DNA from: Escherichia phage ph0011
DNA length: 64,000 bases
Sequence record: OP557969.1
Reading direction: 5' to 3' (one strand)
The translations under genes and the position numbers were made by a program. How positions within the stretch are numbered: the stretch's first letter is position 1; every line of letters begins with the position of its first letter. This document shows, piece by piece, positions 23,995 to 45,162 of the stretch. The notes beneath the pieces were generated by a model. It was not told where the DNA came from and made no database searches. It was given only the letters and a program-made list of their open reading frames with translations.

Positions 23995-24020
23995 GGGAGA
24001 ACATATGTTCTCCCTTTTTT
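23995..24020. terminator. bidirectional terminator between convergent genes
   Basis: Perfect palindrome GGGAGAACA-TA-TGTTCTCCC flanked by A-run and T-run; td stops at 23987, minus-strand fibre gene stops at 24022. Confidence 0.6.
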
Positions 24021-24021
24021 A

Positions 24022-26313
24022 TTATCTAATTGTTACCAATGTTCTTCCGTCGAAACGTACATCAGGAGTTGAAGGTATACTAAACACCACGTTAGTGCCG
24101 TTAAACGTCACGCTATCGACCTCAACACGAGTATATACACCAGGGCTAATCTGTTCCTGTATCTCTGCTGTAACGATGTTTGAGGCTGTTACTGTAAGGG
24201 TGTATGAATCACCACTTAATACCCATGATGAAATAGTAAATGCGTCTGTCCTAACTGAACCTGAACCAATAGGAACCCATTGCCCTTTTACCTTTTGCAT
24301 AGAGGTTCGTTCGGATGTAGAGTATGCAATCATACCATCGACACCCACTGAGTTATCAATGCTTGCTAGTACTGGCAACTGAATACCATATCTATTAAAA
24401 CGTGTACGGATAGTTCCATTATCATAGATACTTACATCAGCATAATTACCCATAGAAAGTTTCAAATCCGCTCCATCCAATGTCATTGAACTTTGATTTG
24501 TATTACTTTCTAGTGTGAGTACACCGTTAGCTAATAAATTGATATTTTTAAATTTATTACTATTTCCTTTAAAAGTTGTATTAGCATTAAAAGTACTTGC
24601 ACCGTTAACTACAATAGTATTTTCTGCTGTGTCGCCTAATATGGTATTACCATTCAAAGTGGTTTCACCATCTACTACAATATTGGATTCGAAAGTACTA
24701 TTACCATTTACTACAAGATTGGATTTAAAAGTTCCATCACCATCTACGTCTACAGTAGAATGGAAAGTACTCTTACCATTAACCACAATAGTATTTTCTG
24801 CGGTATCACCCAATATGGTATTACTATGAACAGTCAAATTACCACTGGTGGTAACATTACTAGCTAGTGTATCACCATTCAATGTACTTGTTCCATCTAC
24901 TACAATATTGGATTTGAAAGTACTTTTACCATTAACCACAATAGTATTTTCTGGGGTTTCACCCAATGTTGTATTACCATGAACATTCAAATTACCACTA
25001 GCAGTAATATTACTAGCTAATGTATCACCAACCAATGTACTAGTACCATCTACTACAATATTACCATGAAAAGCACTTTCACCATTTTTGAATTCAACTT
25101 GTTCTTTATTCATTGAACTAAATGAAATGATATTACTACTTGCACTTATTCCAACATTAGTATTAGTTGGATTATCGAATCTCAGAACTGGCGTTGACGC
25201 AGGTGATGATGTTGATTGATATAATGTCAATGTCGAATTGGTAATTCTAATACGTTCAGTTCCAGAAGTACTGAATCCAATAGCATCATCAGCAGGATGA
25301 AAAATACCAGTATTCGTGTCTGACCATTTTTCAGGGTCATTACCTGGGTTGCTTACTGGGTCGTATGGGCTATTGTTAAATGCAATTGCTGGTGCGGTAG
25401 CACTACCATAGGTCACACCAAATCTACCACCTCCTACTGTACCATCGTCGTACATGGAATCACCAGTCCTACGTAAGCATTCAATTACAACGTTGTCGAT
25501 TGATGTTTGAACGGTTCCTGCATTCGTTCTAAATGGACGATTATTTGCAATCATGATAGTATTATCATATAATACTGAAGCTGCTGAAATACTAGTTCTT
25601 GATTGACGAAGGCGAATGTTTTTATCTTCAGTGATAATGATCCAATCACCATCTGATAGTGCTGTTTGGTTCATTGGTACACCGGATGCAAACGGTTTAG
25701 TTAAATCTTCATCAGTTGCTAAGTTTACTAGCCCACTATGACCAGTACTGGGAATGGCGGTAGATACAATTCTCGCAAAAGCATATGTTACGAGTTTAGC
25801 ACCAGAAATATTTGGATTAGAATCAACATAATATAAAATTTCTACCCAATCACCCTGACCAGTTGGGTTAGTTGGAGTGAATGTCACTGTACTTGTTGTT
25901 GGTTTATTAGCTTCAAAGTGTGCTTGTGCTGCATCTATAATACCACGTACAACATAATAATCACCACTAAGTGATGCTGTAGGTGCAGGTAGTGGACTTT
26001 GTGCCAAAGGTGGGTCTATATCATCAGGGATTGGATTATACGTACCAACAAATTGTAAACCACTAGTTACTGAATCTGGTAACTGTGATGTAAGAAGTTT
26101 GCCGTTAGCATCTAAGTTTGCAAAACGTCTATATGCCATCGAGCCATCTTCAAAATCCAGAACACCCTCGAATGATTTCCATTCTTTATTGTATCTAATC
26201 ATCCCTGATCTTATTACGTCAGCGGTTTCTTTTGATGGTGCTTTTGGTAACTCTAAAAAAGATTTACTATCAATAATTACACCACCATCACCTCTAATTC
26301 GATTTATACTCAT
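24022..26313 (-). CDS. tail fibre / receptor-binding protein with beta-helix-like repeats
   Basis: 763 aa; GAGG RBS; C-terminal ~40-aa repeats (ENTIVVNGKSTF three times); S/T/N/G-rich. Confidence 0.7.
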   Translation of the reverse strand: MSINRIRGDGGVIIDSKSFLELPKAPSKETADVIRSGMIRYNKEWKSFEGVLDFEDGSMAYRRFANLDANGKLLTSQLPDSVTSGLQFVGTYNPIPDDIDPPLAQSPLPAPTASLSGDYYVVRGIIDAAQAHFEANKPTTSTVTFTPTNPTGQGDWVEILYYVDSNPNISGAKLVTYAFARIVSTAIPSTGHSGLVNLATDEDLTKPFASGVPMNQTALSDGDWIIITEDKNIRLRQSRTSISAASVLYDNTIMIANNRPFRTNAGTVQTSIDNVVIECLRRTGDSMYDDGTVGGGRFGVTYGSATAPAIAFNNSPYDPVSNPGNDPEKWSDTNTGIFHPADDAIGFSTSGTERIRITNSTLTLYQSTSSPASTPVLRFDNPTNTNVGISASSNIISFSSMNKEQVEFKNGESAFHGNIVVDGTSTLVGDTLASNITASGNLNVHGNTTLGETPENTIVVNGKSTFKSNIVVDGTSTLNGDTLASNVTTSGNLTVHSNTILGDTAENTIVVNGKSTFHSTVDVDGDGTFKSNLVVNGNSTFESNIVVDGETTLNGNTILGDTAENTIVVNGASTFNANTTFKGNSNKFKNINLLANGVLTLESNTNQSSMTLDGADLKLSMGNYADVSIYDNGTIRTRFNRYGIQLPVLASIDNSVGVDGMIAYSTSERTSMQKVKGQWVPIGSGSVRTDAFTISSWVLSGDSYTLTVTASNIVTAEIQEQISPGVYTRVEVDSVTFNGTNVVFSIPSTPDVRFDGRTLVTIR

Positions 26314-26361
26314 TTAAATATTTCCTCAGAATAGATTATATATGATGTATTTATTTTAGAT

Positions 26362-26392
26362 AAAAGAAAAGGCCAAGTATAGACCTGGCCTT
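26362..26392 (-). terminator. terminator-like hairpin (minus strand)
   Basis: GGCCAAG...CCTGGCC hairpin with T-run on the minus strand, downstream of gene 26400..27179. Confidence 0.4.
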
Positions 26393-26399
26393 TAAAAAA

Positions 26400-27179
26400 T
26401 TATTTATTACGTTCAGGTATCTGAATACCTTCATATACCCATTTAGCAGCTTGTTGTGCTTTATAAATTGCATCTGGGTCAGAATCATCAACTGCATCAA
26501 TCGCTGCACATTGCTCTTCACATTCAGAAAATAGTTTTTCTACCATTGCGGATACTTCAGTATATAGTTGTGTCATTTCTTCTGAGGTAAGTTTTACAAT
26601 AGCATCATCCAGTATGATAGTGACATTTTCAGCACCCGACACTACTTGTGTATAATAATTAAGTAGCATTTGACGACCTGCAAGATCGGTATTGTAGCGA
26701 TGACCTTTGAATTCATAACCTGAATTAACACGAAATGCTCTCTCAGATAATGTTCTTTCTTTTAAATCTGTTTTTACATCAGCAATGGGTACATCAACAA
26801 AATTATAAGTTTTAAGTACTGTTAATGCTTTATATTCATCAGTTGCATCTTCCAAAAATTCCACCACTGGTTGCTTTTCATCTTTCAAACGAACATATTC
26901 CAATTGTTGGCCTTTTGAATTCACATTACCGACATTTTTATATTCTAACCACCAAAAACCTTCTTCTTTTCTCACTACATCATTCGGCTCTACTGGTGAA
27001 CCATCAACACTGGAAATTCCGTACAGAGTTCTAATATCACTATAAAGATAACGATAAGTCTGAGTATCATCGGGAGTTGCACCTGGACGTTCTTTAAGAC
27101 CTTTAACACCAATTGGATTAGTAATAATATTACCCAATTCATAATTTTCTTTTGAATCACCTTTCACATATGTGAACAT
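26400..27179 (-). CDS. hypothetical protein (fibre-associated by position)
   Basis: 259 aa; GAGG RBS; lies between two fibre genes. Confidence 0.6.
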   Translation of the reverse strand: MFTYVKGDSKENYELGNIITNPIGVKGLKERPGATPDDTQTYRYLYSDIRTLYGISSVDGSPVEPNDVVRKEEGFWWLEYKNVGNVNSKGQQLEYVRLKDEKQPVVEFLEDATDEYKALTVLKTYNFVDVPIADVKTDLKERTLSERAFRVNSGYEFKGHRYNTDLAGRQMLLNYYTQVVSGAENVTIILDDAIVKLTSEEMTQLYTEVSAMVEKLFSECEEQCAAIDAVDDSDPDAIYKAQQAAKWVYEGIQIPERNK

Positions 27180-27241
27180 ATAACTACCTCATTTGTTATG
27201 ATGGTGTCACCAAGTATAGGTGACACCTTTTATTATAATTA

Positions 27242-30200
27242 TTAAGCGGTACGTTGAGCAATAAACATATCTGCTACTGAACTTACACCATCGTAAATTA
27301 CCTGATAGATAGTTACAGAGTTTGCAGTTTTATTTAGAGTCCCATCAACAACAGCATATGTACCATCAGTAGTAAAGTTTCTATTACCAGTTGCATCTTG
27401 TTTAACATAAATGTATACTGATGATGCTTTTCCACCACCGATTAGACCAGTGATTGGTGCTAGAGTAGTATCTTGATCAAGAGTGATGAAGTATACGTTG
27501 CTAGTACCGTCAGGGGTCCAAGTACCATTCGGTGCAATAACAGAGGAAGTTACTTTACTTGGAATAACATCATACTTTTTGGTAGTTACGGTTGTAGTGG
27601 CGAGTTCTGCGTTGGTTGTAGTTAACTTACCAGTAACAGTTACTTCTTTATCAAACACCGCATTTTCTTTGAAAGTTGGTGTTGAATTAACAGTTAGTGT
27701 GTCAGTATTAGTATTACCTAAAACCACACTACCACTTGCTGTCATCAAACCAGAAACAGTTAGTGTACCACCAATAGTTGCATTACCAGTTACTGATGCA
27801 CTAGCAAGTGTAGCTGCACCAGATGTAGTTATTGTTGTAACAGATGCTGCCTCTAGTGTGGTTGCACCAGTTGCGGTAAGTTTACCATCAACTACTAGAT
27901 CACCAGTTACGGATGCACCACCGGACATTGTTACTGCCCCACCGAATGAACCAGTTGTAATTACTTCAAGTGTGTTACCTTTTAGTAATTCAGTTGCTGT
28001 GATACTTGTACCAGCGGTAATGCTTGTACCCGCAGAAACAGTATTAGTTGCAGTTAAGGACTTCACAGCTACATCAGAGTTAGCTTGGTTAAGTTTAGCA
28101 TTTAGAGTACCTGTTACTGTGAAGTCACCGTTGTTAACAACATTACCATTGATAGTTAGATTGTTATTTTGTGAACCGACATCACCAATTGTTGCTGATT
28201 TAGAAATTAACTCAGCACCAGCGGTAATGTTGCCAGCAGCACTGATATTGTTTGCTGCAACAACTGCATAAGGTTCAATTGTTTGACCACTAACATCAAT
28301 ATCTGCGTTAATACCACCATCAACACGCAAAGAACCAGCAATATATGTATTAGGGAAAATCTGAACAGTTTCAGTGTGTTCACCGACCTGTGTACCAACA
28401 ATAACATTAGATCCAGTTTTCACTGCACCAGAAGTTGTTAGAGAACCTACTGTTGCTTTGCCAGTAACACCTAGTGTACCGCCAACAGTTGCATTATTAG
28501 TTACTGCCAATGCTGTTCCTTCACCATTCAGTGTAATTGATGGAGCAGTTGCTTTACCAGTTACATCTAGTGTACCACCAACAGTTGCATTACCATCTGA
28601 ATGTATTGTTGTTGCAACAGAAAGACTGTTTGCAATTACATCCGCACCAGTCAAATCCAATGCACCTGGTGTTAATGTACCAGTAATGTTAACATTATTA
28701 CCAAAGGTTGCTGCACCAGTTACATCTAGTGTAGTGCTAAATGTACCAGAAGTTGCAGAGATTGCACCAGATTCAAGTGAACCAACAGTGGTTTTTCCAG
28801 TTACACCCAGTGTACCACCAACTGTTCCATTTGTTGTAACTTCTAGTGTTCCAGTACTTAGATCTTTTGCTGTCACTTTACCAGATGCGTTAACAGTTGT
28901 TGTTGTAACACCACCACTTAGGGTGCTTGTCCCAGTAACACTGAGTGTTTTTGCTGCACTAACGCTGTTTACAGTAAGATCAGCACCTGATAGGTCTAAA
29001 CCACCTTCAGGAATAAAATTACCCTTAACTGTTAGTTGTTGAACAGTACTGTCACCAGTTACATCTAGTGTAGAAGCAGTCAAACCACCATTCATACTTG
29101 CTGCACCAGTAACATCTAGTGTAGTTGTTACAGTTGCACTGTTTAGTGTGGAGCTACCGGAAATATTAGCACTAGGTGCAGTAATAGATCCTTTTACAAC
29201 TTGTACATCACCCGCAACAACATCAATACCACCAGCATTAACTGTTAGTTTTTCAGCAGTATTCAACGTACTTGAAATTGTTGTTGCACCAGTTAAGGTT
29301 GTAGTTCCAGCTACACTTATGTTTCCAGAGATAGATGGATTACCTGTAATGTCACCAGTAGTGAGAACCAATTCAGTACCTACAGTAGTAGAACCAGTAC
29401 TTTCTAGTGTTACACCAACGATGTTTGCAGAACTTAGGTTAATAGTACCATCAACAGTTAAGTTACCGTGAACGGTCGCATCACCAAGTGAATTTAATGT
29501 TTTCACTGAAACATCAGTTTTACTAAGGTCAATTACACCCGCAGTAAGTGTTCCAGATACTGCCAAATTACCAGTTATTGCTGTATTTTTAGTAATAGAT
29601 ACTGTTTCTGATGCTGACGTAATGGAGCCAGCAGTAAGTGCCCCACCAATGGTTGCATTGTTAGTTACGGTTAACGCTGTTTCTTCACCAGATAGTGTTA
29701 AAGAAATACCATTCATTTCACCAGTAATATTTGCCGATGCCGCAGAAATATCACCAGCAACTACCGCATTTGTTGCGTTTAGGGTTGTTGTGGTAATTTC
29801 AGTACTTTTCACTTTAGGTAGTGCGTTGATACCATCTTTACTATTAACTGTAATAATACCAGAACTTGTTAGAGATTTAACAGAAACATCTGCACCACTT
29901 AAGTTAACTGTACCAGAAACAACTAGATCGCCACCAATATTAGCTCCTTCTGTTGTAGTGATTGATTTTGCATTAACTTCAGTGTTACTCAAATCAATTG
30001 CACCAGGTGATACAGTTCCAGAAACTGTGAGATTACCAGTAACTGTAGTATCATTAGAAATAGATACGCCATCATCATTGCTAATTGTTGGGGTTTCAAT
30101 TGTAACAGCTTTAACTTTACCAGAAGAAGTCATGTCAGCAACAGTAGATGCACCAGTGACCTTTAGATTAGTAATATTTGCAGTAGTTGAGCCAAGTGTA

Positions 30201-32746
30201 GTAATCGTACCATCAGTACTTTCTAGTTTAGGAAGAACACTAGCAATAGAAGATTCGTTACTAACAATTGCACCAGTACTAGTTAAAGATTTGACAGTAA
30301 CATCAGCCGTAGTAAGATCTACTGTACCATTAACAGTTAGGTTACCACCAATAGTTGCACCAGCAGTAGTAGTAATGGATTTAGCATTAACATCAGTTGT
30401 TGCTAGATCGATAGAACCTGGAATAACTGCACCAGTAACGGTTAGGTCACCAGTTACATTTGTATTATTGGAAATAGTGACACCACTTGCATTTGAAATG
30501 GTTGGGGTAACCAACGATGCAGTTGTAGTTTCACCAGTTACAGTTAAAGTTGACCCAACTAGAACAGATGAGCTTGAGTAAATTGTACCCAAATTAGCAG
30601 ATCCGGTAACAGTTATATCATCAGCATTAACAGTAGTTGTCGTTATGGTAGTACTATTAAGTACTGGAAGTACGTTAGCATTAACAAGATCATTACTTTT
30701 AACAATACCAGAAGTAGTTAATGATTTAACATTAAGGTTGGCTGCTGATAAATCAAAAGAGCCTTGAACTACTAAATCACCACCAATAGTTGCACCAGCA
30801 GTAGTAGTGATTGATTTAGCATTAATATCGGTAGTGCTCAAGTCTAGAGAACCAACAGTTAAGCTACCAGTAATATCAACATTTTCGGTGAAGTTAGTAT
30901 CACCACTAATAGTTGGTGCAGTAAGATTTGTTGCACTAATATTAGTACCGTTAATTGTTTGCCCACTTACAGTTCCACTCGCAGTGATAGTAGGAGCCGT
31001 TACTTCAGTAGATGCACTAATTGTTGGTGCAGATACAGAAGTTGTACCAGTAATAGTACCAGAACTTACTGAACCAGCGGATAATGCACCAGAAAGAGTT
31101 GCAGTTGTACCAGCAATATCACCAGTAACAGTTAGTTTAGCACCCACGGTAGTGTTACCAGTACTTTCAAGTGTTGCACCTTTAATATTTGCTGCCGCGA
31201 CAACAGAATTAGGTGTTAGATCTTGACCACTAACATCAACAGTTAGTCCAGTTACTGTTCCAGTAAATTCAACATCATTAAGAATTGCCTTACCACCAAC
31301 TGTAAGGTATGGTGTACTTGGGTCTTGAGTATCGTTACCAGTGATAGTTAGATAATCTAGTTTGTTTAGGCCGTTACCAGTAATACCATAAGAAGATAGT
31401 GATGCATTACCAAAGGTAGCAGTTTTAAGTACTTTCAATGTTGCTGGGGAAACCAACTCAGATTGAACTTCATTAGGTAAAATAACGGTTGGACGTTTAT
31501 CTTGTGCGGTATACGCAAAACCTAGTTTCACAGCAGAATCTTGTGAATTTTGACCTAAACTAATAGCTTTAAAAGAAGCAGTACCGTTTAAACCAGTAAT
31601 ATTAGATCCTAGTGTAACACCACCAACTAAAGAAGACGCACCCTTTATATTTAAAGTGTTTGCATCAATATCATCAAGTTGGAAATCACCACCAAATGTA
31701 CCGGAAACATTAATATTATTAAAATTAGCAGTACCAGTACTTTCAATATCTGGAATGGTTGCTGTTCCAGTAACCTCAAAATCAGCAACTTTAGTTTTAC
31801 CTTTTGTCACTTCTAGAAGTGGGGTGTCAGGTGATTGTGTATCGTTACCAGAAACGGTTAGATAATCTAGTTTGTTTAGACCATTACCAGTAATACCATA
31901 AGAAGACAATGATGCATTACCAAAAGTAGCAGAAGTTAAAACTGTCAATTTAGCAGGTGACATTAATTCAGATTGAATTTCATTTTGTAGAATTACTGTT
32001 GGACGTTTATCAGGAGCACTGTAAGGGAAGCTCAATCTGGAGGTTTGTGATTCAGAGTCGGTTCCGATACGGATATCTTTAAATGTAGCAGTGCTATTAA
32101 TACCAGTTACGTTAGCACCAAAAGTTACCGCACCTTTTTGATTAGATGCACCAGTAACATTCAATGTTTCAGCGTTTAAATCAGAAAGATTAAACTCGCC
32201 ACCTAGTGTACCACTAATATTCACATCTTGAAACTCAGCAGTGCCAGTACTAGTAATGTCAGTTGCGGTAATAGTTGTAATTTCTGCGGAATTGGAAGTA
32301 ATTTTATCAAAAGCAGCGGTTGTACCAACCTCAGCAGATAAGTCCCCTTTAAGTGTTGTTTCTCCCACAACTTCTAAGCTTTTTACTTTAGTTGATTGTA
32401 GTGTGGTTGAACCAGCAGTTTGTGAAAAATCACTACCCACCGACACAGTACCGTTAAACGTAGCACTTGAATTGATTGTTACTGTATCAGAACCACCATC
32501 TGCACTGCCGATTGTGGTATTTCCAGTAATATCAAGGCCACCACTTAATGTTGCTTTACCACCAACATCTAAAGTAGAGTTGATGATAGCTGTTTCAGTT
32601 TCAATAGCAGTAAATGTTGCGTTTGCAAAAGAGATACTACCATCTACTCTTAGGTTATTCTTGATTACTGCATTACCTTTGACTAATAGATCCTTACCAA
32701 CTGTTCCAGCACCAGTAATATCTAAGTCAGTTTTTATTGAGTACAT
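27242..32746 (-). CDS. long tail fibre protein
   Basis: 1834 aa; GGAGGG RBS; extreme T/S/G/N/V composition typical of beta-structured fibres; large internal tandem duplications. Confidence 0.75.
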   Translation of the reverse strand: MYSIKTDLDITGAGTVGKDLLVKGNAVIKNNLRVDGSISFANATFTAIETETAIINSTLDVGGKATLSGGLDITGNTTIGSADGGSDTVTINSSATFNGTVSVGSDFSQTAGSTTLQSTKVKSLEVVGETTLKGDLSAEVGTTAAFDKITSNSAEITTITATDITSTGTAEFQDVNISGTLGGEFNLSDLNAETLNVTGASNQKGAVTFGANVTGINSTATFKDIRIGTDSESQTSRLSFPYSAPDKRPTVILQNEIQSELMSPAKLTVLTSATFGNASLSSYGITGNGLNKLDYLTVSGNDTQSPDTPLLEVTKGKTKVADFEVTGTATIPDIESTGTANFNNINVSGTFGGDFQLDDIDANTLNIKGASSLVGGVTLGSNITGLNGTASFKAISLGQNSQDSAVKLGFAYTAQDKRPTVILPNEVQSELVSPATLKVLKTATFGNASLSSYGITGNGLNKLDYLTITGNDTQDPSTPYLTVGGKAILNDVEFTGTVTGLTVDVSGQDLTPNSVVAAANIKGATLESTGNTTVGAKLTVTGDIAGTTATLSGALSAGSVSSGTITGTTSVSAPTISASTEVTAPTITASGTVSGQTINGTNISATNLTAPTISGDTNFTENVDITGSLTVGSLDLSTTDINAKSITTTAGATIGGDLVVQGSFDLSAANLNVKSLTTSGIVKSNDLVNANVLPVLNSTTITTTTVNADDITVTGSANLGTIYSSSSVLVGSTLTVTGETTTASLVTPTISNASGVTISNNTNVTGDLTVTGAVIPGSIDLATTDVNAKSITTTAGATIGGNLTVNGTVDLTTADVTVKSLTSTGAIVSNESSIASVLPKLESTDGTITTLGSTTANITNLKVTGASTVADMTSSGKVKAVTIETPTISNDDGVSISNDTTVTGNLTVSGTVSPGAIDLSNTEVNAKSITTTEGANIGGDLVVSGTVNLSGADVSVKSLTSSGIITVNSKDGINALPKVKSTEITTTTLNATNAVVAGDISAASANITGEMNGISLTLSGEETALTVTNNATIGGALTAGSITSASETVSITKNTAITGNLAVSGTLTAGVIDLSKTDVSVKTLNSLGDATVHGNLTVDGTINLSSANIVGVTLESTGSTTVGTELVLTTGDITGNPSISGNISVAGTTTLTGATTISSTLNTAEKLTVNAGGIDVVAGDVQVVKGSITAPSANISGSSTLNSATVTTTLDVTGAASMNGGLTASTLDVTGDSTVQQLTVKGNFIPEGGLDLSGADLTVNSVSAAKTLSVTGTSTLSGGVTTTTVNASGKVTAKDLSTGTLEVTTNGTVGGTLGVTGKTTVGSLESGAISATSGTFSTTLDVTGAATFGNNVNITGTLTPGALDLTGADVIANSLSVATTIHSDGNATVGGTLDVTGKATAPSITLNGEGTALAVTNNATVGGTLGVTGKATVGSLTTSGAVKTGSNVIVGTQVGEHTETVQIFPNTYIAGSLRVDGGINADIDVSGQTIEPYAVVAANNISAAGNITAGAELISKSATIGDVGSQNNNLTINGNVVNNGDFTVTGTLNAKLNQANSDVAVKSLTATNTVSAGTSITAGTSITATELLKGNTLEVITTGSFGGAVTMSGGASVTGDLVVDGKLTATGATTLEAASVTTITTSGAATLASASVTGNATIGGTLTVSGLMTASGSVVLGNTNTDTLTVNSTPTFKENAVFDKEVTVTGKLTTTNAELATTTVTTKKYDVIPSKVTSSVIAPNGTWTPDGTSNVYFITLDQDTTLAPITGLIGGGKASSVYIYVKQDATGNRNFTTDGTYAVVDGTLNKTANSVTIYQVIYDGVSSVADMFIAQRTA
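29400..30900 (-). repeat. intragenic tandem repeat array, about 4 units of ~435 bp
   Basis: Protein units of ~145 aa each containing D(I/V)NAKSITTT.GA.IGG..V...V.L..A.V.VKSLT; matching DNA near 29930, 30370 and 30800; boundaries approximate. Confidence 0.5.
31250..32260 (-). repeat. intragenic tandem duplication, two units of ~510 bp
   Basis: Protein segments ~aa 162-330 and 331-500 highly similar (KRPTVIL.NE.QSEL.SPA.L.VL..ATFGNASLSSYGITGNGLNKLDYLT); DNA copies recognisable by eye; boundaries approximate. Confidence 0.55.
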
Positions 32747-32821
32747 TTATACCCTCCGTTGGAGCCTTGTTAATATGTATATATTTAGTTTAATTTAACT
32801 GATATCCAATATTTTATAAAA

Positions 32822-32853
32822 TAAAAAACCAGACTTATTTGAATAAGCCCGGT
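32822..32853 (-). terminator. terminator-like hairpin (minus strand)
   Basis: Imperfect hairpin followed by T-run on the minus strand, just downstream of stop at 32863. Confidence 0.35.
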
Positions 32854-37057: not shown

Positions 37058-37166
37058 AATATTTCCCTTTTATGAGTGAATGTCATATACCAATATTTAT
37101 CAGTACGAAATACATTTCGTCACCATTAATAAATAAATGAAAGTTCACTACTAAAAGGGCTTAACA

Positions 37167-37664: not shown

Positions 37665-37673
37665 GGATTAGAA

Positions 37674-38282
37674 ATGAAATTAGAAGCAGAACAACCAAAA
37701 CTATTTGTTAAAGGTCATGTCCTAATTACTGACGTTACTGATCCATCAAATCAAAAAATCGTTTTAGATAAATCTAACGCTATTCACCCAGAAAATATGA
37801 GTACTGCAATTGCTAATGCGTTAGCATACAATCAAGATAGTACCAGTATTCCTATTGGTTCAATTAGCGAAATGCGTTTTGGTAATGGTGGTACTGTAGT
37901 GTTAAGTACTGGGCGAGTCACGTACAAAAAACCACGCGTGACTTCCTTTGGTGGATTGTATTCACAAACATATTTAAAAAAAATCAACCCAAGAATTTCT
38001 GCTGGTATTGATTCACAGTATAATAACATCACAACAGTTCATATCCCAGGACAATCATATACTGATATTGTATGTATTTGTACACTTGGTTTAGGTGAAC
38101 CATCAGACCAAGGTGTAAGTTCAGGTACAAGTATGGATGGTACATATGTATTTGATGAATTGGGGTTATATACTGATGGTGATAGTGGTATTCCATTGAC
38201 ACATATCATTTTTCACCCAGTTGAGAAAAGTGCTAACCGTGTGTTACAAATTAAATACACAGTTCGTGTACAACTACAATAA
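37674..38282 (+). CDS. hypothetical protein
   Basis: 202 aa; AAGGAT RBS; no motif recognised. Confidence 0.55.
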   Translation: MKLEAEQPKLFVKGHVLITDVTDPSNQKIVLDKSNAIHPENMSTAIANALAYNQDSTSIPIGSISEMRFGNGGTVVLSTGRVTYKKPRVTSFGGLYSQTYLKKINPRISAGIDSQYNNITTVHIPGQSYTDIVCICTLGLGEPSDQGVSSGTSMDGTYVFDELGLYTDGDSGIPLTHIIFHPVEKSANRVLQIKYTVRVQLQ

Positions 38283-38294
38283 TGGGGTCAAATT

Positions 38295-39395
38295 ATGAGT
38301 GTAAGTTATACAATTTATAGAAGCAATGGTAGTGTTTATGCTACCATTCCAAATAATGTCATATTGGGGCCAAACCAACCAGGAAGTAACCCAGTTCCGT
38401 TGAATTTCGTCGGAAGAAATAAAGTAAGTTATGGACAAGCATGGAATGAAAACTTTTTACATTTAGTTGAGAATTTTAGTTCGGCTTCAGCACCACGCGG
38501 TAATGTGAACGGTCAACTATGGTACAGAAATGCTGGCAGTACTGGTGAATTATTGATATCATTGGTTGACAATGCTAGACAACCATCAGATGTTGTGAGT
38601 GAAGCTGAGTGGGCGTCTATTCCAATGATTTCTGTGTTTAATACCGTACCAGATGGTGAAAATAGTGTTATGGGTCGTATGGTATTAACCAGTAATGGTG
38701 ACTCACTTCGTGTATTAATGAAAAATAAAGAATGGCGTGAAATTCAAACATCACGCCCTGAGAATAAAGAATATACATCATTATTGGATATTAACTATGA
38801 TAATGGTAAAAAATATATTGAGTTTACACAAAATAATAGTACCAAGCCACTAGCATATTTTAACTTAGGAGGAACGTCACAAGTCGATACTAACAACTGG
38901 ACAACAGTAACTAACGGAACTGGTGTTTTTGAATTTGGTAGTAACTATTTCTATGAATTAAAAATTATGATTAGAGAGGTAAGCGATTCAACAGGTGAAA
39001 TTGTATCAGTTCCACATAATTCAAAAACATTTTTAATCAAAGGTCAATTTTATGTAGATAACCAAGGTACGTTTGTCCCTGGTTCTGTGGGTGCAAGTCA
39101 AATGCCAGACCCCCGCAGGATTACACATCTAGAAACCATTAAAGATGTCATTACCAGTAGTCGCCCGAACTGGGATGTGAACATGGTTATCAATGATGTA
39201 GATCCATCACTACCTAATCCAAACGGCACATCTAAAGCAGATTATGAAAACTGGGTTATTAACTCATTGAACTCTAATAAAAACTTGGGATTTAGAGTTG
39301 ATGGTAGTATTAGCAATCTTGCACCAGGTGAATCTGTGAAATTACAAGCATCAGTGTTGTTAAACATTACAGGTATTCCAATTATTGGTGTATAA
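38295..39395 (+). CDS. hypothetical protein (structural candidate)
   Basis: 366 aa; N/S/T-rich; no motif recognised. Confidence 0.55.
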   Translation: MSVSYTIYRSNGSVYATIPNNVILGPNQPGSNPVPLNFVGRNKVSYGQAWNENFLHLVENFSSASAPRGNVNGQLWYRNAGSTGELLISLVDNARQPSDVVSEAEWASIPMISVFNTVPDGENSVMGRMVLTSNGDSLRVLMKNKEWREIQTSRPENKEYTSLLDINYDNGKKYIEFTQNNSTKPLAYFNLGGTSQVDTNNWTTVTNGTGVFEFGSNYFYELKIMIREVSDSTGEIVSVPHNSKTFLIKGQFYVDNQGTFVPGSVGASQMPDPRRITHLETIKDVITSSRPNWDVNMVINDVDPSLPNPNGTSKADYENWVINSLNSNKNLGFRVDGSISNLAPGESVKLQASVLLNITGIPIIGV

Positions 39396-39400
39396 AAAAA

Positions 39401-39422
39401 GGAGCCACATGGCTCCTTTTTT
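39401..39422. terminator. bidirectional terminator between convergent genes
   Basis: GGAGCC-ACAT-GGCTCC flanked by A7 and T6; plus gene stops at 39395, minus gene stops at 39421. Confidence 0.6.
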
Positions 39423-39885
39423 AATATCTATATGGTAAACTATTGACAAACTGTGTACCTTCACGTATACTTTCCCATAATGAGTAAAAATCTTTCATCA
39501 AGTTTGTGTTAAGCAATGTGTTTTTTGCACCAGGGTGTAATGGTTTAGGCCACGAGCCGATTTTAACCCATGCATATCCAGAGCTTTCATGATTTAATGT
39601 TGGTATAAACTCATTCTCAACTACGATAACAAATGAATAATATTTAAATTTACCATTTTTTGTACAAAATACATCAAATGGTATAATATCAATAATATTT
39701 GGTATTGAGTCACCTAACTCTTCTTTAATTTCTCTCATAAGACCTTGTATTGGTGTTTCGTCGCGTTCAAGCTTTCCACCAACAAATGCCCAATTGTTCG
39801 AATAGGTACTTCTTTCAGAACGTAAATTTAACATCATATGTCCGGTACTTTTTGATAAAAATATAGCACCAACAGCTTCATTCAT
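39421..39885 (-). CDS. Nudix hydrolase
   Basis: 154 aa; Nudix box GGKLERDETPIQGLMREIKEELG (G-x5-E-x7-REUxEExGU pattern); AGGAGG RBS. Confidence 0.75.
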   Translation of the reverse strand: MNEAVGAIFLSKSTGHMMLNLRSERSTYSNNWAFVGGKLERDETPIQGLMREIKEELGDSIPNIIDIIPFDVFCTKNGKFKYYSFVIVVENEFIPTLNHESSGYAWVKIGSWPKPLHPGAKNTLLNTNLMKDFYSLWESIREGTQFVNSLPYRY

Positions 39886-39897
39886 AACAACACCTCC

Positions 39898-41241
39898 TTA
39901 TTTGTCAGTGAAAGTTATTTTCCAATATCCTTGACGATAAACTGGCATAATACTTTTATGCCATTTAAATTTACCATTGTATCTATAATAACCATTATCT
40001 TCGTTGTTATAAATGTAATTACGCACAGTTGATGGGTCAATTAATTCAGCACCGTCGTTGGTAATTTTAAACAAATAATTCGAAGGAATTTCAGTTTCTT
40101 TGTAAATGATGTTATGCATACTGTTATTTACGTAATATTGTTCAGGTATTGCATCAAAAAGAACTGAGCTTTTTTGGACAAATCCATGAATAGTATAATC
40201 AACTGTATAGTTGCTACTATCAAGCTGAACGATAATTTTATTTGCATCTTCATCTTCACCATATGAAGAAATATAGCCTTTGAGTGGATTATCTTCTTCG
40301 ATTGATTGTTGAAATTTAATACCGACTTTTTTATCATCAAAATTGGGTTCCAAATATTTAAGATATTTTTCCCATGAGTATATACCACCATTAGGGGAAA
40401 CATCGGACAATGACTGACTAACTAAAGTTAGTTGATATGTATCTGGTAAATTATATAAAGAATTAGTTATCTCTTCAACTTTAATACATAAGTTTTTTGG
40501 TGTAAAGACATCAGTGATAATATCCGAATAGTCAGACATTTCAATGTCAAATTCATCACGAGCACCTTTTATATTAGTAGTGATCTGTTGAATCAATTTT
40601 GGTTTTTCAACAATAGCTGGTAAAGAAAACCATATTGTTGTTTCAAATGTCAATACCATAATGTCTAAATCTTGGTCAGTTCCTTGTGGAAATCCACGTG
40701 TAGAGAACTGACAATCAATCAACTCTACATCACTTAGTGATGTCCAATCCAACGGGTTTTCAGATAACTGAAGTTGAATACTCGGTGAAAATAAAGTTGA
40801 AATTTGCTCAAATAATTCCATCTTTGTTTGTATTTGAGTTACCCAGATATTCAAATCAAATGTAAATGTCCAAGGAACTGGGTTATGTCTTACGATTTTA
40901 TATTGTGAATCGAGTTCTTTTTTGTATTCATTAATGGCAGGTGATGTGTTTGTTCCCATAACTAATGTTTCATTCGCATTAGAACGTATACTTTTACGAT
41001 CCAGCTTTAGTTGATTAACACTGATTGTCATAATTGGTGCAGATGGAAGAACATTTTCACTATTACCATTGATAATTGCAGCAGCCATTCTTGATATATC
41101 CGCATAACGACATGGAACCTTTTTATATTTTGGGTTCCCATCAGCATCAACACCATTTTGTACTTGAAATTCACCAAAAACTCTGATAAGATGTTTCAGT
41201 ACTCTGCGAAATTGGCCGTCATAATAATAATCTATTTTCAT
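39898..41241 (-). CDS. tail completion / sheath stabiliser, T4 gp15-like (tentative)
   Basis: 447 aa; N-terminus YYYDGQFRRVLKHLIRVFGEFQV...VPCRYA resembles T4 gp15 N-terminus recalled from memory; start overlaps upstream stop (ATGA). Confidence 0.45.
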   Translation of the reverse strand: MKIDYYYDGQFRRVLKHLIRVFGEFQVQNGVDADGNPKYKKVPCRYADISRMAAAIINGNSENVLPSAPIMTISVNQLKLDRKSIRSNANETLVMGTNTSPAINEYKKELDSQYKIVRHNPVPWTFTFDLNIWVTQIQTKMELFEQISTLFSPSIQLQLSENPLDWTSLSDVELIDCQFSTRGFPQGTDQDLDIMVLTFETTIWFSLPAIVEKPKLIQQITTNIKGARDEFDIEMSDYSDIITDVFTPKNLCIKVEEITNSLYNLPDTYQLTLVSQSLSDVSPNGGIYSWEKYLKYLEPNFDDKKVGIKFQQSIEEDNPLKGYISSYGEDEDANKIIVQLDSSNYTVDYTIHGFVQKSSVLFDAIPEQYYVNNSMHNIIYKETEIPSNYLFKITNDGAELIDPSTVRNYIYNNEDNGYYRYNGKFKWHKSIMPVYRQGYWKITFTDK

Positions 41242-42731
41242 TCTGTGTCCTTATGTATACGATAAGCTGTATTTGGTTTAACTGCGTCATGTAATGGAAC
41301 TTTATTATCACTATTTACGAACTTAGTAAGTGCTAAATCTGCACCTTCCCACGGTTTTCTACCACCGTAATCAAAAATAACCCATGAATTCTTAGTTGCA
41401 TTGAATTCCCACAGTGTAACTGGTGTATAATCAGTACGGTAAAAGTAATCACCATCAACTGCATCAGTAGGGAACATGTTTCCTTCTGGAACTGTACCTC
41501 TTGCTGGTGGGATTTTAGGGCGATAATCCTGTTGTGCATCAATATTTCCATATACACAACTTGATGTGAATGGGTCATTGACGTAAGTTACTTTTGGTTC
41601 GCCCCATTTACCATCATTGTACTGAAAAATGTGTGGTTCTTTATAAAAAATACAAAAATCTTCAATATCTTTTGGTGGATTTTCACTGGTCGTGTATTCA
41701 ACATCACAATTTAACCATTTTTTAACACTTTTATCGTACTGGTATAGTGTATACCCAGTTACATCTACATCATTCTCTTTAAAGAAGAAATCACCATCCA
41801 TAGGTTTCTTAGGAAAAACGGTTCCACGCTTGACTTCCAGTGAAATCCATGTATCATTATCGTATTCTTTAAGTATTGGGTATGTTTTTTTCAAAAAATA
41901 CATACCACTTGCAGGTTCTTCGGGGAAATCATATCCATTAAGCATATACTTTGACAAATCAACAGTATCACGACGGTCATCATACAAATGCTCGTTGGTA
42001 TAATGAATATAAGGCACTTCATCATCAGCTTGCATAATGATACGATTCATAATATCCATTTCATTACTATAGTTACTGTTATCAGATGTACCATCATCAG
42101 TGTTACCATTACCATTATTTGGATCATTTGGGTTATCAGGGTAATTGTTGTTTCCTAGTAAGTCGGAGTACTCAGGAGAGTCAGTCAATGGCTTTACTCG
42201 AAGTTTATAAATGTGATGTTGCCAAGTAACAGAGTAACCTTCTGCTGTACGAAACGCATCTTGGACCACATAGAAGCGATTCAGACCAGAATCTTTACCA
42301 AGAACATCATAATCACGTAAATTTGGTAGTTCAATTACATCACCAGGCATGATTTTTCTACCCAATCGTTGCATCATGGTATTGTAGTGGATTGTAATGT
42401 CCATCGTGTTGAAATTAAAGAACAAACCTGGAATTTTCAAGTCAGGTGTTGCTTCTTGAACTTGATAGACACAACTTAGTGTGATTGCTTCAAGATTATA
42501 GTTTCTATTTGGGGTGTCTCCAAAAATTAAATCACCAATACTTGACACAACCGATCCAGAAGATGTATAATCACCGCCATATGATAAGTCTTTGTTATCT
42601 GCAACTTGTTTTGGGCCGACATAAGCGTAAAGCCACATGTCAACACCACCAATGTTGTATTGTTCAGCAATGGCAGAGTCAATGAACTTGTAATCATTGG
42701 TTCTACCTTTTTTCCACATTCTATATGTCAT
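41238..42731 (-). CDS. neck protein, T4 gp14-like (tentative)
   Basis: ATG at 42731 preceded by GGAGA (track ORF starts at TTG 42743); weak resemblance to gp14 in the region MPGDVIELPNL...YKLRVKP. Confidence 0.4.
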   Translation of the reverse strand: MTYRMWKKGRTNDYKFIDSAIAEQYNIGGVDMWLYAYVGPKQVADNKDLSYGGDYTSSGSVVSSIGDLIFGDTPNRNYNLEAITLSCVYQVQEATPDLKIPGLFFNFNTMDITIHYNTMMQRLGRKIMPGDVIELPNLRDYDVLGKDSGLNRFYVVQDAFRTAEGYSVTWQHHIYKLRVKPLTDSPEYSDLLGNNNYPDNPNDPNNGNGNTDDGTSDNSNYSNEMDIMNRIIMQADDEVPYIHYTNEHLYDDRRDTVDLSKYMLNGYDFPEEPASGMYFLKKTYPILKEYDNDTWISLEVKRGTVFPKKPMDGDFFFKENDVDVTGYTLYQYDKSVKKWLNCDVEYTTSENPPKDIEDFCIFYKEPHIFQYNDGKWGEPKVTYVNDPFTSSCVYGNIDAQQDYRPKIPPARGTVPEGNMFPTDAVDGDYFYRTDYTPVTLWEFNATKNSWVIFDYGGRKPWEGADLALTKFVNSDNKVPLHDAVKPNTAYRIHKDTE

Positions 42732-42773
42732 ATTTGTCTCCAAAATAATTCGGGTATATCTTTATTTACCATG

Positions 42774-42801
42774 TAGACAAACCATAAGAATGTGATATAA
42801 T
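42774..42801 (+). promoter_or_regulatory. sigma70-type promoter with extended -10 upstream of ClpA-like gene
   Basis: TAGACA, 16-nt spacer, TGTGATATAAT; lies in the divergent intergenic region. Confidence 0.45.
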
Positions 42802-42839: not shown

Positions 42840-45128
42840 ATGAATCTTACTCAATTGTTCAAAAAAAGCGACGAACTAGCAACATCCCTAGGTCATACTT
42901 TCTTGACTATTGACCATGTGAGTGCTACAGTACTGACTATTGATAGTATCAAGGGCGTGTTCGAAGAAATGAACATCGATGCTGACAAATTGCATAGTCG
43001 ACTGATGAACTATCTTAAAAATACAACGGTTCCAAGTGCACCAAAAAGTACACTCGATGAAGATGCTAATCGCACTTCACTTCTGGTGAACCGTGTTGTA
43101 CATGAGCTTTCGAAAAAATCAGTCATTGAACAACTAAAAAGTGATGATTTTTCGATTGATGCATATTTTGTTCTATTTGAATGTTTATCATTCCCAAACA
43201 CTGCACTTGAAGCTGCTTTGAAAGAAGAAGGCGTTAGCTGTACCGAAGCTGCTCGTGCACTACAGAAACACGTTGAGGCACTGGAAAAGGGTATCAACCT
43301 TCAAAGTATCAATGACGAACCTACTGGAGATAAAAAAGTGGCTCAACCACAGCAATCATCTAAACAAAAAGGTTTAGCAGACTATACAACAAACCTAACG
43401 GCACTTGCAAAAGAAGGCAAACTAGACCCAATGATTGGTCGCCAAAAAGAGCTATCTGCATTGATTGAGACTCTTGCTCGCAAAACCAAAAAGAATGCCA
43501 TCCTGACTGGTGAAGCTGGTGTTGGTAAAACACAAATCATCGACGGTCTTGCACAAGCAATTGCTGATGGTAATGTACCAGAGCACTTAAAAGATGTTGA
43601 AATTCTTTCCCTAAATGTTGGTGCGTTGACTGCTGGGACTAAGTATCGTGGTGAATTTGAGGAACGTATCGATAATTTACTAAAAGAACTAAAGAAACGT
43701 GAAAACACAATTGTTTTCATTGATGAAATCCATATTATGGTCGGAGCAGGTTCTGCAAGCAACGGTTCAATGGACATGAGCAATATGCTTAAACCAGCAC
43801 TATCACGTGGTGAGATTCGTGTAATTGGTGCAACAACATACGAAGAATATCGTAAAAACATCGAGAAAGATAGTGCATTGACTCGTCGTTTTATGAAAAT
43901 TGATGTTGTTGAACCGTCAATCGATGAAACTCGTGAAATTGTGAACGGTCTTAAATCAACTTATGAAAAATTCCATAACGTTGAGTTTACAAAAGATGCA
44001 ATGGATGCAGTAATTTCTCTCAGTGAGAAGTTCTTGAAAAATAAACACTTCCCAGATAAAGCAATTGACCTAATGGATGCTGCTGCTGCGAAAGTGCGTT
44101 CACGTGATAATAATAGTAAACTAATTACAGAGAATTTGATTCAAGAAGTTGTTGCTGGTATTGCTAACTTGGATATCAACGTGGTTGCATGTACAGAAAG
44201 TGAACGTATGCGTAATCTACCAGATGCACTACGTTCACGTGTTTACGGACAAGAAGAAGCGATTCAAAAATTGGTTGATAATGTAATGGTTGCTCGTGCT
44301 GGTCTACGTGATAAGTCGAGTGTTCAGGGTGCTTTTATGTTTGTTGGTCCGTCAGGTACTGGTAAAACAGAAATTACAAAAGCATTAGCTGAAGCAACGG
44401 GTTCAGAGCTTGTTCGTTTTGATATGTCTGAGTTTTCTCAAGAACATACTGTTTCAAAACTAATTGGTTCCCCTCCAGGTTATGTTGGTCACGATTCTGG
44501 TAATGGTTTGCTATTGGATAAGATTGAGCAGTTTCCTAATGCCATTCTACTACTCGATGAAATCGAGAAAGCAGATCGTAAAGTACTACTAACCTTCCTA
44601 CAGGTTCTGGACGAAGGACGTTTGACTGGCTCACAAGGTAAAACTGTTTACTTCAATAACGTAACTGTTATTATGACAACCAACCTTGGTGCGGCTGATT
44701 CAACAAAGCGTAGTATTGGGATGAGTGGTAGTGAAAGTGCACAAGACAAGGCAATTAAAGCATTCTTACCACCAGAATTCATTAACCGTATTGACAGTAT
44801 TGTTACGTTTAATGAACTAAGTAGTGAAGCAATTGACAGTATCATTGATAAATTCATGGGAAGTTTGAATGAACAAGTTAAACATCGCAACGTAAAAGTT
44901 TCACTAACGAAAGCTGCACGTGGATGGCTTGCAAAAAATGGTGTTCAGGTAGGTATGGGTGCACGACCAATGAAACGTACAATTGAACAAAACATTCGCG
45001 TACCACTAGCGAAGGAAATGTTGTGTGGTTCACTGGTAAATGGTGGTAACATTACATTTGATGTTATCAATGACAAACTTGGTATTAAACCAAAACGTAC
45101 TAAAGCAGTTGAAAAAACACTAGCTTAA
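42840..45128 (+). CDS. clpA: ClpA-like AAA+ unfoldase (Clp_N domain, D1 and D2 ATPase modules)
   Basis: 762 aa; GGAGAA RBS; D1 Walker A GEAGVGKT and Walker B FIDEIH; D2 Walker A GPSGTGKTE and Walker B LLLDEIEKA; ClpP-docking-type loop SIGM; collinear with E. coli ClpA. Confidence 0.85.
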   Translation: MNLTQLFKKSDELATSLGHTFLTIDHVSATVLTIDSIKGVFEEMNIDADKLHSRLMNYLKNTTVPSAPKSTLDEDANRTSLLVNRVVHELSKKSVIEQLKSDDFSIDAYFVLFECLSFPNTALEAALKEEGVSCTEAARALQKHVEALEKGINLQSINDEPTGDKKVAQPQQSSKQKGLADYTTNLTALAKEGKLDPMIGRQKELSALIETLARKTKKNAILTGEAGVGKTQIIDGLAQAIADGNVPEHLKDVEILSLNVGALTAGTKYRGEFEERIDNLLKELKKRENTIVFIDEIHIMVGAGSASNGSMDMSNMLKPALSRGEIRVIGATTYEEYRKNIEKDSALTRRFMKIDVVEPSIDETREIVNGLKSTYEKFHNVEFTKDAMDAVISLSEKFLKNKHFPDKAIDLMDAAAAKVRSRDNNSKLITENLIQEVVAGIANLDINVVACTESERMRNLPDALRSRVYGQEEAIQKLVDNVMVARAGLRDKSSVQGAFMFVGPSGTGKTEITKALAEATGSELVRFDMSEFSQEHTVSKLIGSPPGYVGHDSGNGLLLDKIEQFPNAILLLDEIEKADRKVLLTFLQVLDEGRLTGSQGKTVYFNNVTVIMTTNLGAADSTKRSIGMSGSESAQDKAIKAFLPPEFINRIDSIVTFNELSSEAIDSIIDKFMGSLNEQVKHRNVKVSLTKAARGWLAKNGVQVGMGARPMKRTIEQNIRVPLAKEMLCGSLVNGGNITFDVINDKLGIKPKRTKAVEKTLA

Positions 45129-45137
45129 AAAACAAAA

Positions 45138-45162
45138 GGAGAGCATTTTGCTCTCCTTTTTT
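45138..45162. terminator. bidirectional terminator between convergent genes
   Basis: GGAGAGC-ATTTT-GCTCTCC flanked by A-run and T6; ClpA-like stop 45128, giant gene stop 45164. Confidence 0.6.

Follow-up and report, generated by a model that had tools for sequence, protein, structure and literature searches.

Symmetric hairpins at the three convergent gene junctions of a jumbo coliphage segment as probable bidirectional intrinsic terminators

What brings transcription to an end where two oppositely oriented gene blocks of a phage genome run into each other with hardly any room between them? The question is raised three times by the window analysed here, a stretch of 64,000 nucleotides from Escherichia phage ph0011 (OP557969.1), a jumbo E. 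coli myophage of the genus Asteriusvirus (121Q/PBECO4 group) with a genomic G+C content of about 35%. The ORF map divides the window into strand blocks (Table 1) that converge at exactly three junctions, hereafter S1, S2 and S3, with gaps of 34, 25 and 35 nt, respectively; each gap is nearly filled by a hairpin that sits just past both stop codons of the convergent units. A preliminary description had placed GC-rich, perfectly palindromic hairpins flanked by an A-run and a T-run at 23995-24020, 39401-39422 and 45138-45162, and had read them as bidirectional terminators occupying every convergent junction. Location, flanking runs and occupancy (3/3) are borne out by the present analysis, those coordinates comprising the G+C core and the T-run, with the A-run just upstream.

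Table 1. Coordinates of hairpins, flanking genes, strand blocks, promoter-like motifs and example one-way terminators in the window
Feature	Position	Strand	Details
S1 hairpin	23991-24020	both	A-run 23991-23994; stem GGGAGAAC 23995-24002; loop ATAT; stem GTTCTCCC 24007-24014; T-run 24015-24020
S1 flank	stop 23985-23987	+	thymidylate synthase ORF
S1 flank	stop 24022-24024	-	763-aa structural ORF
S2 hairpin	39394-39422	both	A-run 39394-39400; stem GGAGCC 39401-39406; loop ACAT; stem GGCTCC 39411-39416; T-run 39417-39422
S2 flank	stop 39393-39395	+	366-aa structural ORF
S2 flank	stop 39421-39423	-	NUDIX ORF
S3 hairpin	45134-45162	both	A-run 45134-45137; stem GGAGAGCA 45138-45145; loop TTT; stem TGCTCTCC 45149-45156; T-run 45157-45162
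S3 flank	stop 45126-45128	+	ClpA-like ATPase ORF
S3 flank	stop 45164-45166	-	3333-aa structural ORF
Strand block	1-23987	+	ORF map
Strand block	24022-37057	-	ORF map
Strand block	37167-39395	+	ORF map
Strand block	39421-42743	-	ORF map
Strand block	42840-45128	+	ORF map
Strand block	45164-63931	-	ORF map
Extended -10 element TGATATAAT	20815-20823	+	upstream of unit 20843-23987 running into S1; putative early/middle sigma-70-type promoter
T4-late-like ATAAATA	26348-26354	-	35 nt upstream of start of gene 26313-24022 running into S1; putative late promoter
ATAAATA	37129-37135	+	32 nt upstream of unit 37167-39395 running into S2; putative late promoter
ATAAATA, mirror copy	37094-37100	-	would serve the divergent - unit
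Sigma-70-like TAGACA-16-TATAAT, TG extension	42774-42801	+	upstream of ClpA-like unit 42840-45128 running into S3; putative promoter
ATAAATA	55172-55178	-	head of giant - gene running into S3; putative late promoter, preceded by one-way terminator 55190-55207
One-way terminator	9126-9143		between co-directional genes
One-way terminator	10214-10233		between co-directional genes
One-way terminator	32829-32852		between co-directional genes
One-way terminator	55190-55207		between co-directional genes

Two terms of that description have to be narrowed. A strict palindrome is found at S1 only (28 nt, 23991-24018, centred on CATATG), S2 and S3 being perfect stems with non-palindromic loops; likewise, with five G-C pairs in each core of 6-8 bp, the stems are G+C-rich relative to the rest of the genome and not beyond that. 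All three stems are perfect and reach 12 bp when A-U pairs are counted, and the loops measure 3-4 nt. At S2 both stop codons are overlapped by the flanking runs, the whole 25-nt spacer therefore being hairpin, and at S3 further A residues are present from 45127, ahead of the A-run. The core dG is the same on both strands (S1 -12.5, S2 -10.4, S3 -11.9), and RNA folding of the full hairpins gives -17 to -20 kcal/mol on either strand, with z-scores of -4.5 to -6.6. On both strands of all three sites a U-tract of 4-7 directly follows the stem on its 3' side, the T-scores (plus/minus strand) being 4.98/3.76 at S1, 4.56/4.95 at S2 and 4.92/4.76 at S3. The minus-strand U-tract is interrupted at S1 (UUUUCGUUU) and S3 (UUUUGUUUUUU), and termination at these two sites may therefore be weaker in the minus direction. 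The three stems differ from one another (GGGAGAAC, GGAGCC and GGAGAGCA), their common part being the A-run followed by GGAG.

The reading favoured here, to which a probability of about 0.9 is given, is that S1, S2 and S3 are canonical bidirectional Rho-independent (intrinsic) terminators of the host RNA polymerase, their activity and efficiency being predicted from sequence. Every feature by which such a terminator is recognised at the sequence level is present on both strands at each site, a hairpin followed by a U-tract being obtained from either strand because what is an A-run on one strand reads as a U-tract from the other. Whichever strand is transcribed, the same Watson-Crick hairpin and then the U-tract would be produced; the hairpin would fold inside the RNA exit channel of the E. 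coli host polymerase at the moment when the weak rU-dA hybrid occupies the active site, and the transcript would be released. In this phage group the host polymerase is redirected by the phages' own sigma factors; relatives encode sigma factors, one of them gp55-like, and no phage-encoded RNA polymerase has been reported for the group. Each converging unit would then end within a few bases of the stop codon of the opposite gene, antisense run-through into the adjoining block would be prevented, and the two mRNAs would share only the hairpin. After release, the A-run could pair with the remaining U residues to yield a 12-bp, nearly blunt 3' hairpin, which should shield the mRNA from 3' exonucleases. 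In the literature library searched, no transcriptomes or RNA 3' ends of Asteriusvirus or Rak2-like phages were found.

Chance can be ruled out as the source of these structures. Four perfect inverted repeats in the 64 kb combine a stem of 12 bp or longer with a loop no longer than 8 nt and 4 or more G-C pairs, three of them being S1, S2 and S3, against a mean of 0.025 expected from 40 dinucleotide shuffles; moreover, the segments at the junctions rank in the top ~1% of 50-nt folding energies in the window, as do the junctions of each relative in its own sequence. Rfam (gathering threshold) and tRNA scans of the whole window gave no match, hence no structured RNA gene that would account for the hairpins. 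An internal comparison concerns the 14 compact intergenic hairpins of the window, namely the three convergent ones and 11 lying between co-directional genes. Equal dG on the two strands, a stem free of G-U pairs and T-scores that reach 3.76 or more on each strand are combined in 3/3 convergent versus 0/11 co-directional hairpins (Fisher 1/364). The one-way terminators of the window resemble S1-S3 in size, energy and in the U-tract after the stem, yet they are asymmetric and built for the sense strand only: they carry G-U pairs that turn into C-A on the opposite strand, or the T-run is missing, and five of the 11 lose 3-8 kcal/mol on the opposite strand. It is strand-specific dG, G-U pairs and T-score that discriminate one-way from two-way hairpins, whereas the numbers of A and T within 8 nt to the left and right do not, several one-way terminators of this AT-rich genome being also A-rich on the left.

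Terminator prediction, which had been proposed as a check, recovers the same hairpins. A T-run-anchored scan finds S1, S2 and S3, each on both strands, whereas a stem-extending scan reports S1 on a single strand, S3 on both, and S2 not at all; the two omissions, S2 and S1 on the minus strand, arise because the stem is run through the A/T runs and no T tail is then left. Homologous hairpins are, in addition, already marked as terminators in the GenBank records of phages G17 (vB_EcoM_G17, MK327931; ARNold) and UE-S1 (ON568341), at the same junctions and with identical stem cores at 3/3 sites. Differences are confined to loop bases and run lengths (the annotated S2 feature of G17 includes one additional flanking A-T pair), in genomes with at most ~89% identity to that of the window over 24 kb.

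The phenomenon itself is already known and is textbook biology, as the preliminary description had held. Hairpins with an A-tail and a T-tail are the signature by which TransTermHP recognises bidirectional terminators in tail-to-tail regions (PMC1852404), and canonical bidirectional Rho-independent terminators consist, like S1-S3, of a perfect G+C-containing stem-loop with a 5' A-tract and a 3' T-tract, located between convergent genes and usable on both strands. Nothing essential sets the present sites apart, their local traits being the 25-35 nt spacers, the overlap with stop codons at S2 and the recurrent GGAG/CTCC stem base. The same anatomy is displayed by T50 of phage LUZ7, a terminator between a convergent pair for which more than 96% termination has been reported in both orientations, E. 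coli included (PMC10204088).

The hairpins are also retained among relatives. Nine of them were compared, from Asteriusvirus, Mimasvirus, Alcyoneusvirus and Eneladusvirus plus PHA46 (no genus), the BF17 locus stopping short of S1, and a hairpin is present at all 26 homologous junctions covered; in 24 of these it is a perfect-stem, A/T-flanked hairpin within the intergenic gap, while the S2 hairpin of GAP32 and that of CBB fall inside the coding end of the NUDIX gene. The stem sequences change: GGGAGAAC, GGGAGAC, GGAGCC and GGGAGC are found at S1, GGAGCC and GGTAGTC at S2, and GGAGAGCA, GGAGAGCC, GGGAGCC and GAGGGC at S3. Both stem arms differ between relatives and the loops vary freely, an observation that comes from per-sequence folds and the background percentile, in related genomes that are not independent samples. 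A MAFFT/RNAalifold alignment put the stems out of register, since the lengths of stem, loop and A/T-runs all vary, and its pair counts carry no meaning. The S1 loop is ATCA in UE-S1, 121Q and G17, as opposed to ATAT in the window, so that the strict S1 palindrome is peculiar to the latter genome. Two further convergent junctions of 121Q, outside the region equivalent to the window and within the 41% of that genome examined, have the same architecture. Sequence, symmetry, non-random occurrence, position and conservation are observed; termination, its efficiency and the promoter assignments are predictions.

Promoter-like motifs head each of the converging units (Table 1), some of them of a T4-late-like type described for the relatives CBB and GAP32 (PMC5259590). 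At S1 and S3 a unit with a sigma-70-type (early or middle) motif would meet one with a late motif, and it is proposed that these sites also act as temporal insulators, keeping sigma-70-type units apart from late structural ones.

The convergent arrangement invites a different interpretation, in which S1-S3 serve mainly as pause or positioning elements where converging polymerases stall and collide head-on, trailing polymerases aiding release, rather than as autonomous terminators. Such a collision model, which needs an RNA stem-loop, has been proposed for convergent pairs of E. coli (10.1101/2022.10.23.513370) and raised for phage convergent pairs by the LUZ7 authors (PMC10204088); each of the three sites is indeed flanked by converging units, and the collision-dependent E. 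coli terminators (Ju et al. 2019; Wang et al. 2022/2023) share with them convergent pairs, a stem-loop and overlapping 3' ends. These E. coli sites are, however, described as lacking canonical intrinsic features and as terminating poorly in one-way transcription (10.1101/2022.10.23.513370), whereas S1-S3 bear the canonical signature on both strands and so fall outside a class defined by its absence. Furthermore, simultaneous head-on traffic may be limited at S1 and S3 by the apparently different promoter classes of the units that meet there. Collision as the main mechanism is, on these grounds, unlikely. As a separate remark, collision-driven and intrinsic mechanisms are not mutually exclusive.

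Even less probable is that the hairpins are primarily mRNA 3'-end stability or processing elements, which block 3'-5' exonucleases at ends generated by processing of read-through RNA. The pairing of A-run and U-run does produce a 12-bp hairpin that leaves little 3' overhang, and terminators are known to stabilise the upstream mRNA (PMC10204088). A pure stabiliser, though, needs no U-tract, and strong U-tracts are found on both strands at 3/3 sites and in relatives; the sense-side T-run in 10 of the 11 co-directional hairpins is likewise a signature of termination, and stabilisation should come along with intrinsic termination, not in its place. That S1-S3 act as DNA-level palindromes (sites for dimeric proteins, hot spots of cruciform formation or recombination, or a mobile palindromic element), with transcription being irrelevant, is scarcely credible: the perfect 28-nt palindrome of S1 with its CATATG centre, the A-run + GGAG ... 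CTCC + T-run common to the three sites and a near-identical GGAGCC hairpin that some phages carry at S1 and others at S2 would suit it, but the palindromic centre of S1 is not shared by relatives, the loops of S2 and S3 are asymmetric, and stems that change among relatives while pairing is kept point to selection on RNA structure and not on a DNA recognition sequence. A mobile or repeated extragenic palindrome was considered and rejected, for the three stems differ and no repeated family exists among inverted repeats of at least 9 bp in the window.

As bidirectional intrinsic terminators, S1-S3 would fix exactly where six transcription units end at the 3' side, in a jumbo-phage genome that is poorly annotated and has no known function for more than 80% of its genes; combined with the promoter-like motifs, they delimit the converging units, the use that the preliminary description had foreseen. 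Being natural, symmetric and only ~30 bp long, they are also candidate two-way terminators for synthetic biology in E. coli, parts of this kind being said to be scarce (PMC10204088). Their value is practical and small.

A last point concerns the base of the stem. The combination of A-run and GGAG with CUCC and U-run is found at 3/3 bidirectional sites versus 0/10 one-way terminators in the window, and most homologous junctions keep it across at least four named genera (Asteriusvirus, Mimasvirus, Alcyoneusvirus and Eneladusvirus), between which the top of the stem differs. Its 5' arm is Shine-Dalgarno-like and its 3' arm anti-Shine-Dalgarno-like. It is doubtful that this base carries a second function, rather than being merely inherited. 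Possible candidates for such a function are the masking of GGAG from a RegB-like, GGAG-specific phage endoribonuclease, an interaction with ribosomes at the 3' end, or a cassette swapped between junctions by gene conversion, the latter idea being suggested by a near-identical hairpin (A-run, GGAGCC, a 3-nt loop AAT or ATT, GGCTCC, T-run) that occupies S1 in GAP32 and fHe-Yen9-04 and S2 in BF17 and A4.

The 24-kb stretch around S1, S2 and S3, the candidate two-way terminator hairpins, matches Asteriusvirus jumbo E. coli myophages (121Q, PBECO4, G17, phAPEC6), UE-S1 being the best match (88.6% identity, 95% of the query). The window is ~35% G+C and 96% coding in my own gene model, and its six alternating strand blocks converge at three places only, leaving gaps of 34, 25 and 35 nt, and diverge at two. 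The preliminary description had placed a perfect palindrome flanked by an A-run and a T-run at each convergent junction (23995-24020, 39401-39422, 45138-45162). A sequence check confirms the three flanked hairpins at these positions, each with a perfect 12-bp stem, A-U pairs counted; strictly, only S1 is a DNA palindrome (28 nt), the loops of S2 and S3 being asymmetric. At S2 the A-run begins within the TAA of the plus-strand gene and the T-run ends within the TTA (minus-strand TAA) of the opposing gene; therefore, the entire 25-nt spacer would be terminator.

Features of the window and of homologous loci
Feature	Coordinates	Strand	Detail
Strand block	1-23987	+	ORF map
Strand block	24022-37057	-	ORF map
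Strand block	37167-39395	+	ORF map
Strand block	39421-42743	-	ORF map
Strand block	42840-45128	+	ORF map
Strand block	45164-63931	-	ORF map
S1	23991-24020		AAAA-GGGAGAAC-ATAT-GTTCTCCC-TTTTTT
S2	39394-39422		AAAAAAA-GGAGCC-ACAT-GGCTCC-TTTTTT
S3	45134-45162		AAAA-GGAGAGCA-TTT-TGCTCTCC-TTTTTT
Co-directional terminator	19268-19295		perfect inverted repeat
Hairpin between two structural genes	27203-27227		GGTGTCACC...GGTGACACC, -15 kcal/mol
Hairpin in DprA-like gene (21754-22347)	21811-21835	+	GGCGGGGCAGCAGGTGCTGACCGCC + TTTTTT, -14.8 kcal/mol
S2-equivalent hairpin, GAP32 (L006)	~21777-21804
S2-equivalent hairpin, CBB (L007)	~21776-21803
ATAAATA heading gene into S1	26348-26354	-
ATAAATA heading unit into S2	37129-37135	+
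ATAAATA heading giant gene into S3	55172-55178	-
ATAAATA, example sites	6395, 9465, 13233, 26348, 37094, 37129, 55172, 58733, 59693
Sigma-70-type, before unit into S1	20815-20823	+	extended -10 TGATATAAT
Sigma-70-type, before unit into S3	42774-42801	+	TAGACA-16-TGATATAAT, extended -10
Sigma-70 promoter	17635-17663		12/12 match + TG extension
Sigma-70 promoter	17726-17753		11/12 match
AT-rich 35-nt hairpin	17818-17852		in 17621-17923 gap
Thymidylate synthase ORF	22347-23987	+	546 aa
Structural gene beside S1	24022-26313	-	763 aa
ORF beside S3	45164-55165	-	3333 aa

Chance is ruled out as the source of these hairpins: of perfect inverted repeats whose stem reaches 12 bp or more, with no more than 8 nt in the loop and four or more G-C pairs, the window holds four, where 40 dinucleotide shuffles averaged 0.025. 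S1-S3 account for three of them, and the other is a co-directional terminator. Folded as RNA, S1-S3 reach -16.8 to -20 kcal/mol on both strands, with z-scores of -4.5 to -6.6. The built-in terminator scan reported both strands of S3 but only the plus strand of S1, and missed S2 because the stem extended through the A/T runs leaves no T tail; a T-run-anchored scan recovered all three, each on both strands. The minus-strand U-tract is broken at S1 and S3, and termination there may thus be more efficient in one direction than in the other.

Together with 11 hairpins between co-directional genes, S1-S3 make up the 14 compact intergenic hairpins of the window, and among these they alone have the same dG on both strands, pair without any G-U and score 3.76 or more for the T-tail both ways. 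The co-directional hairpins are lopsided: the sense strand is favoured in 10 of the 11, five have G-U pairs, which the opposite strand turns into C-A mismatches (3-8 kcal/mol lost), and most of the others are without an antisense-side T-run. Thresholds of -9 or lower for dG and 3.5 or higher for the T-score, applied to each strand, are passed by 3/3 convergent and 0/11 co-directional sites (Fisher 1/364, my own arithmetic). A/T counts beside the stem do not discriminate two-way from one-way hairpins in this AT-rich genome. Perfect Watson-Crick symmetry, picked out in the preliminary description, is thus the property that would enable two-way termination; it appears only where such termination would be needed.

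Two further hairpins deserve mention. The strong one between two minus-strand structural genes has its T-run on the plus (antisense) strand only (T-score 4.07 vs 0.72), an arrangement kept in UE-S1, 121Q and BF17, A4 having a different hairpin instead; its role may be antisense-directed termination or, on the sense strand, stability or processing. The terminator-like one ~60 nt into the DprA-like gene is near-identical in sequence in 8/9 relatives (the BF17 locus stops short of the region); a glycine-rich protein motif probably accounts for this constancy, and a role as attenuator is possible.

The syntenic 41 kb was compared from nine phages, namely the Asteriusvirus UE-S1, 121Q, BF17 and A4, the Mimasvirus GAP32 and CBB, the Alcyoneusvirus K64-1, the Eneladusvirus fHe-Yen9-04, and PHA46, which has no genus assignment. 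The phages keep the gene order and the three convergent junctions (the BF17 locus ends before S1), and every covered junction bears a perfect-stem hairpin with A-run and T-run, of -15 to -24 kcal/mol, in the top ~1% of 50-nt windows per locus (worst case, top 2.6%). Stems vary on both arms between phages: GGGAGAAC/GTTCTCCC, GGGAGAC/GTCTCCC, GGAGCC/GGCTCC and GGGAGC/GCTCCC at S1; GGAGCC/GGCTCC and GGTAGTC/GACTACC at S2; GGAGAGCA/TGCTCTCC, GGAGAGCC/GGCTCTCC, GGGAGCC/GGCTCCC and GAGGGC/GCCCTC at S3. Loops are freely variable, the palindromic ATAT of S1 being ATCA in UE-S1, 121Q and G17. As stems and loops vary while the hairpin stays, the conserved element is the RNA hairpin; a DNA recognition sequence is rejected on the same variation. 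MAFFT alignments placed the stems out of register, and a formal covariation count was unusable. In GAP32 and CBB the S2-equivalent gap is just 1-3 nt, and a different hairpin (TGGCAGAC...GTCTGCCA + T6) lies within the NUDIX gene, at the 3' end of its coding sequence; thus, the function appears kept and the site relocated into coding sequence. Beyond the window-equivalent region, two more convergent junctions in the first 100 kb of 121Q are built the same way (gp37/gp38 and gp154/gp155); at the third, gp16/gp17, where a short hypothetical gene gives an overlap of 14 nt, there is no hairpin.

The counterparts of S1-S3 in related genomes are already annotated as terminators: in the GenBank record of G17, ARNold features coincide exactly with the hairpins at all three junctions, and the UE-S1 record likewise marks them. 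The claim that S1-S3 are bidirectional terminators between opposed units, of the canonical intrinsic kind, is supported by both-strand symmetry, conservation and the G17 features, from which I infer termination itself. For CBB, 74 Rho-independent terminators and phage sigma factors, one of them gp55-like, have been described (PMC5259590). A sigma factor is also encoded by phAPEC6 and 121Q, with no phage RNA polymerase reported; therefore, the host core polymerase is the expected enzyme. This polymerase recognises intrinsic terminators. The phage LUZ7 terminator T50, of the same anatomy as S1-S3, terminates in antisense orientation at 97-99%, E. coli included (PMC10204088). The polymerase-collision model (Ju, Wang and colleagues) concerns sites described as without canonical features; at S1-S3 collision may be an addition but is unneeded as explanation. 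A literature search found no transcriptome of any Asteriusvirus.

Only the stem base is mildly unexpected: A-run + GGAG (GGGAG) ... CTCC(C) + T-run is common to S1-S3 and most homologues, and in the window it is seen at 3/3 of the bidirectional sites but at 0/10 of the one-way terminators. This Shine-Dalgarno-like base recurs at homologous junctions in the relatives (L002-L010) and at gp37/gp38 of 121Q (28807-28845 of a further stretch, L011). A near-identical hairpin (A-run, GGAGCC, 3-nt loop AAT/ATT, GGCTCC, T-run) stands at S1 in GAP32 and fHe-Yen9-04 and at S2 in BF17 and A4. Common descent, along with the need for G-C pairs beside the U-tract, is the simplest explanation.

The T4-late-like motif ATAAATA, described in CBB and GAP32 (PMC5259590), is strongly depleted in the window (13 copies vs 38 expected), as is TATAAATA (1 vs 10.5). 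Every one of the 13 ATAAATA copies is in sense orientation to the local genes, and most stand 17-57 nt before a start codon; depletion and placement are consistent with a late promoter avoided elsewhere. As sigma-70-type and late motifs head facing units, S1 and S3 probably divide early or middle units from late ones, to judge by these motifs. A 300-nt non-coding gap (17621-17923) holds two near-consensus sigma-70 promoters, and TGNTATAAT is over-represented in the window as a whole (17 copies vs 8.1 expected).

As for neighbouring genes, the thymidylate synthase ORF, at 546 aa, is longer than its 309-aa counterparts in 121Q, G17 and A4. Its two ends (residues 1-120 and 386-546) align to 121Q ThyA; the ~260-aa in-frame insertion between them matched nothing in Pfam even at E<=1, and Rfam gave no group I intron. 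It could be a degenerate intein, a homing-endonuclease-derived insert or a novel domain; UE-S1 ThyA is also annotated long (517 aa). The structural gene beside S1 exceeds the 654 aa of 121Q and G17, and nucleotide similarity is lost over 22000-24965 in many relatives, which points to a variable region that possibly bears on host range. In the 3333-aa ORF beside S3, Pfam finds no domain at all. In 121Q, the HNH homing-endonuclease gene gp584 (L003 1793-2557) sits between the gp25-like and baseplate-wedge genes, where the window (58676-58779), UE-S1, BF17 and A4 have only a ~100-nt gap with a terminator (58748-58771).
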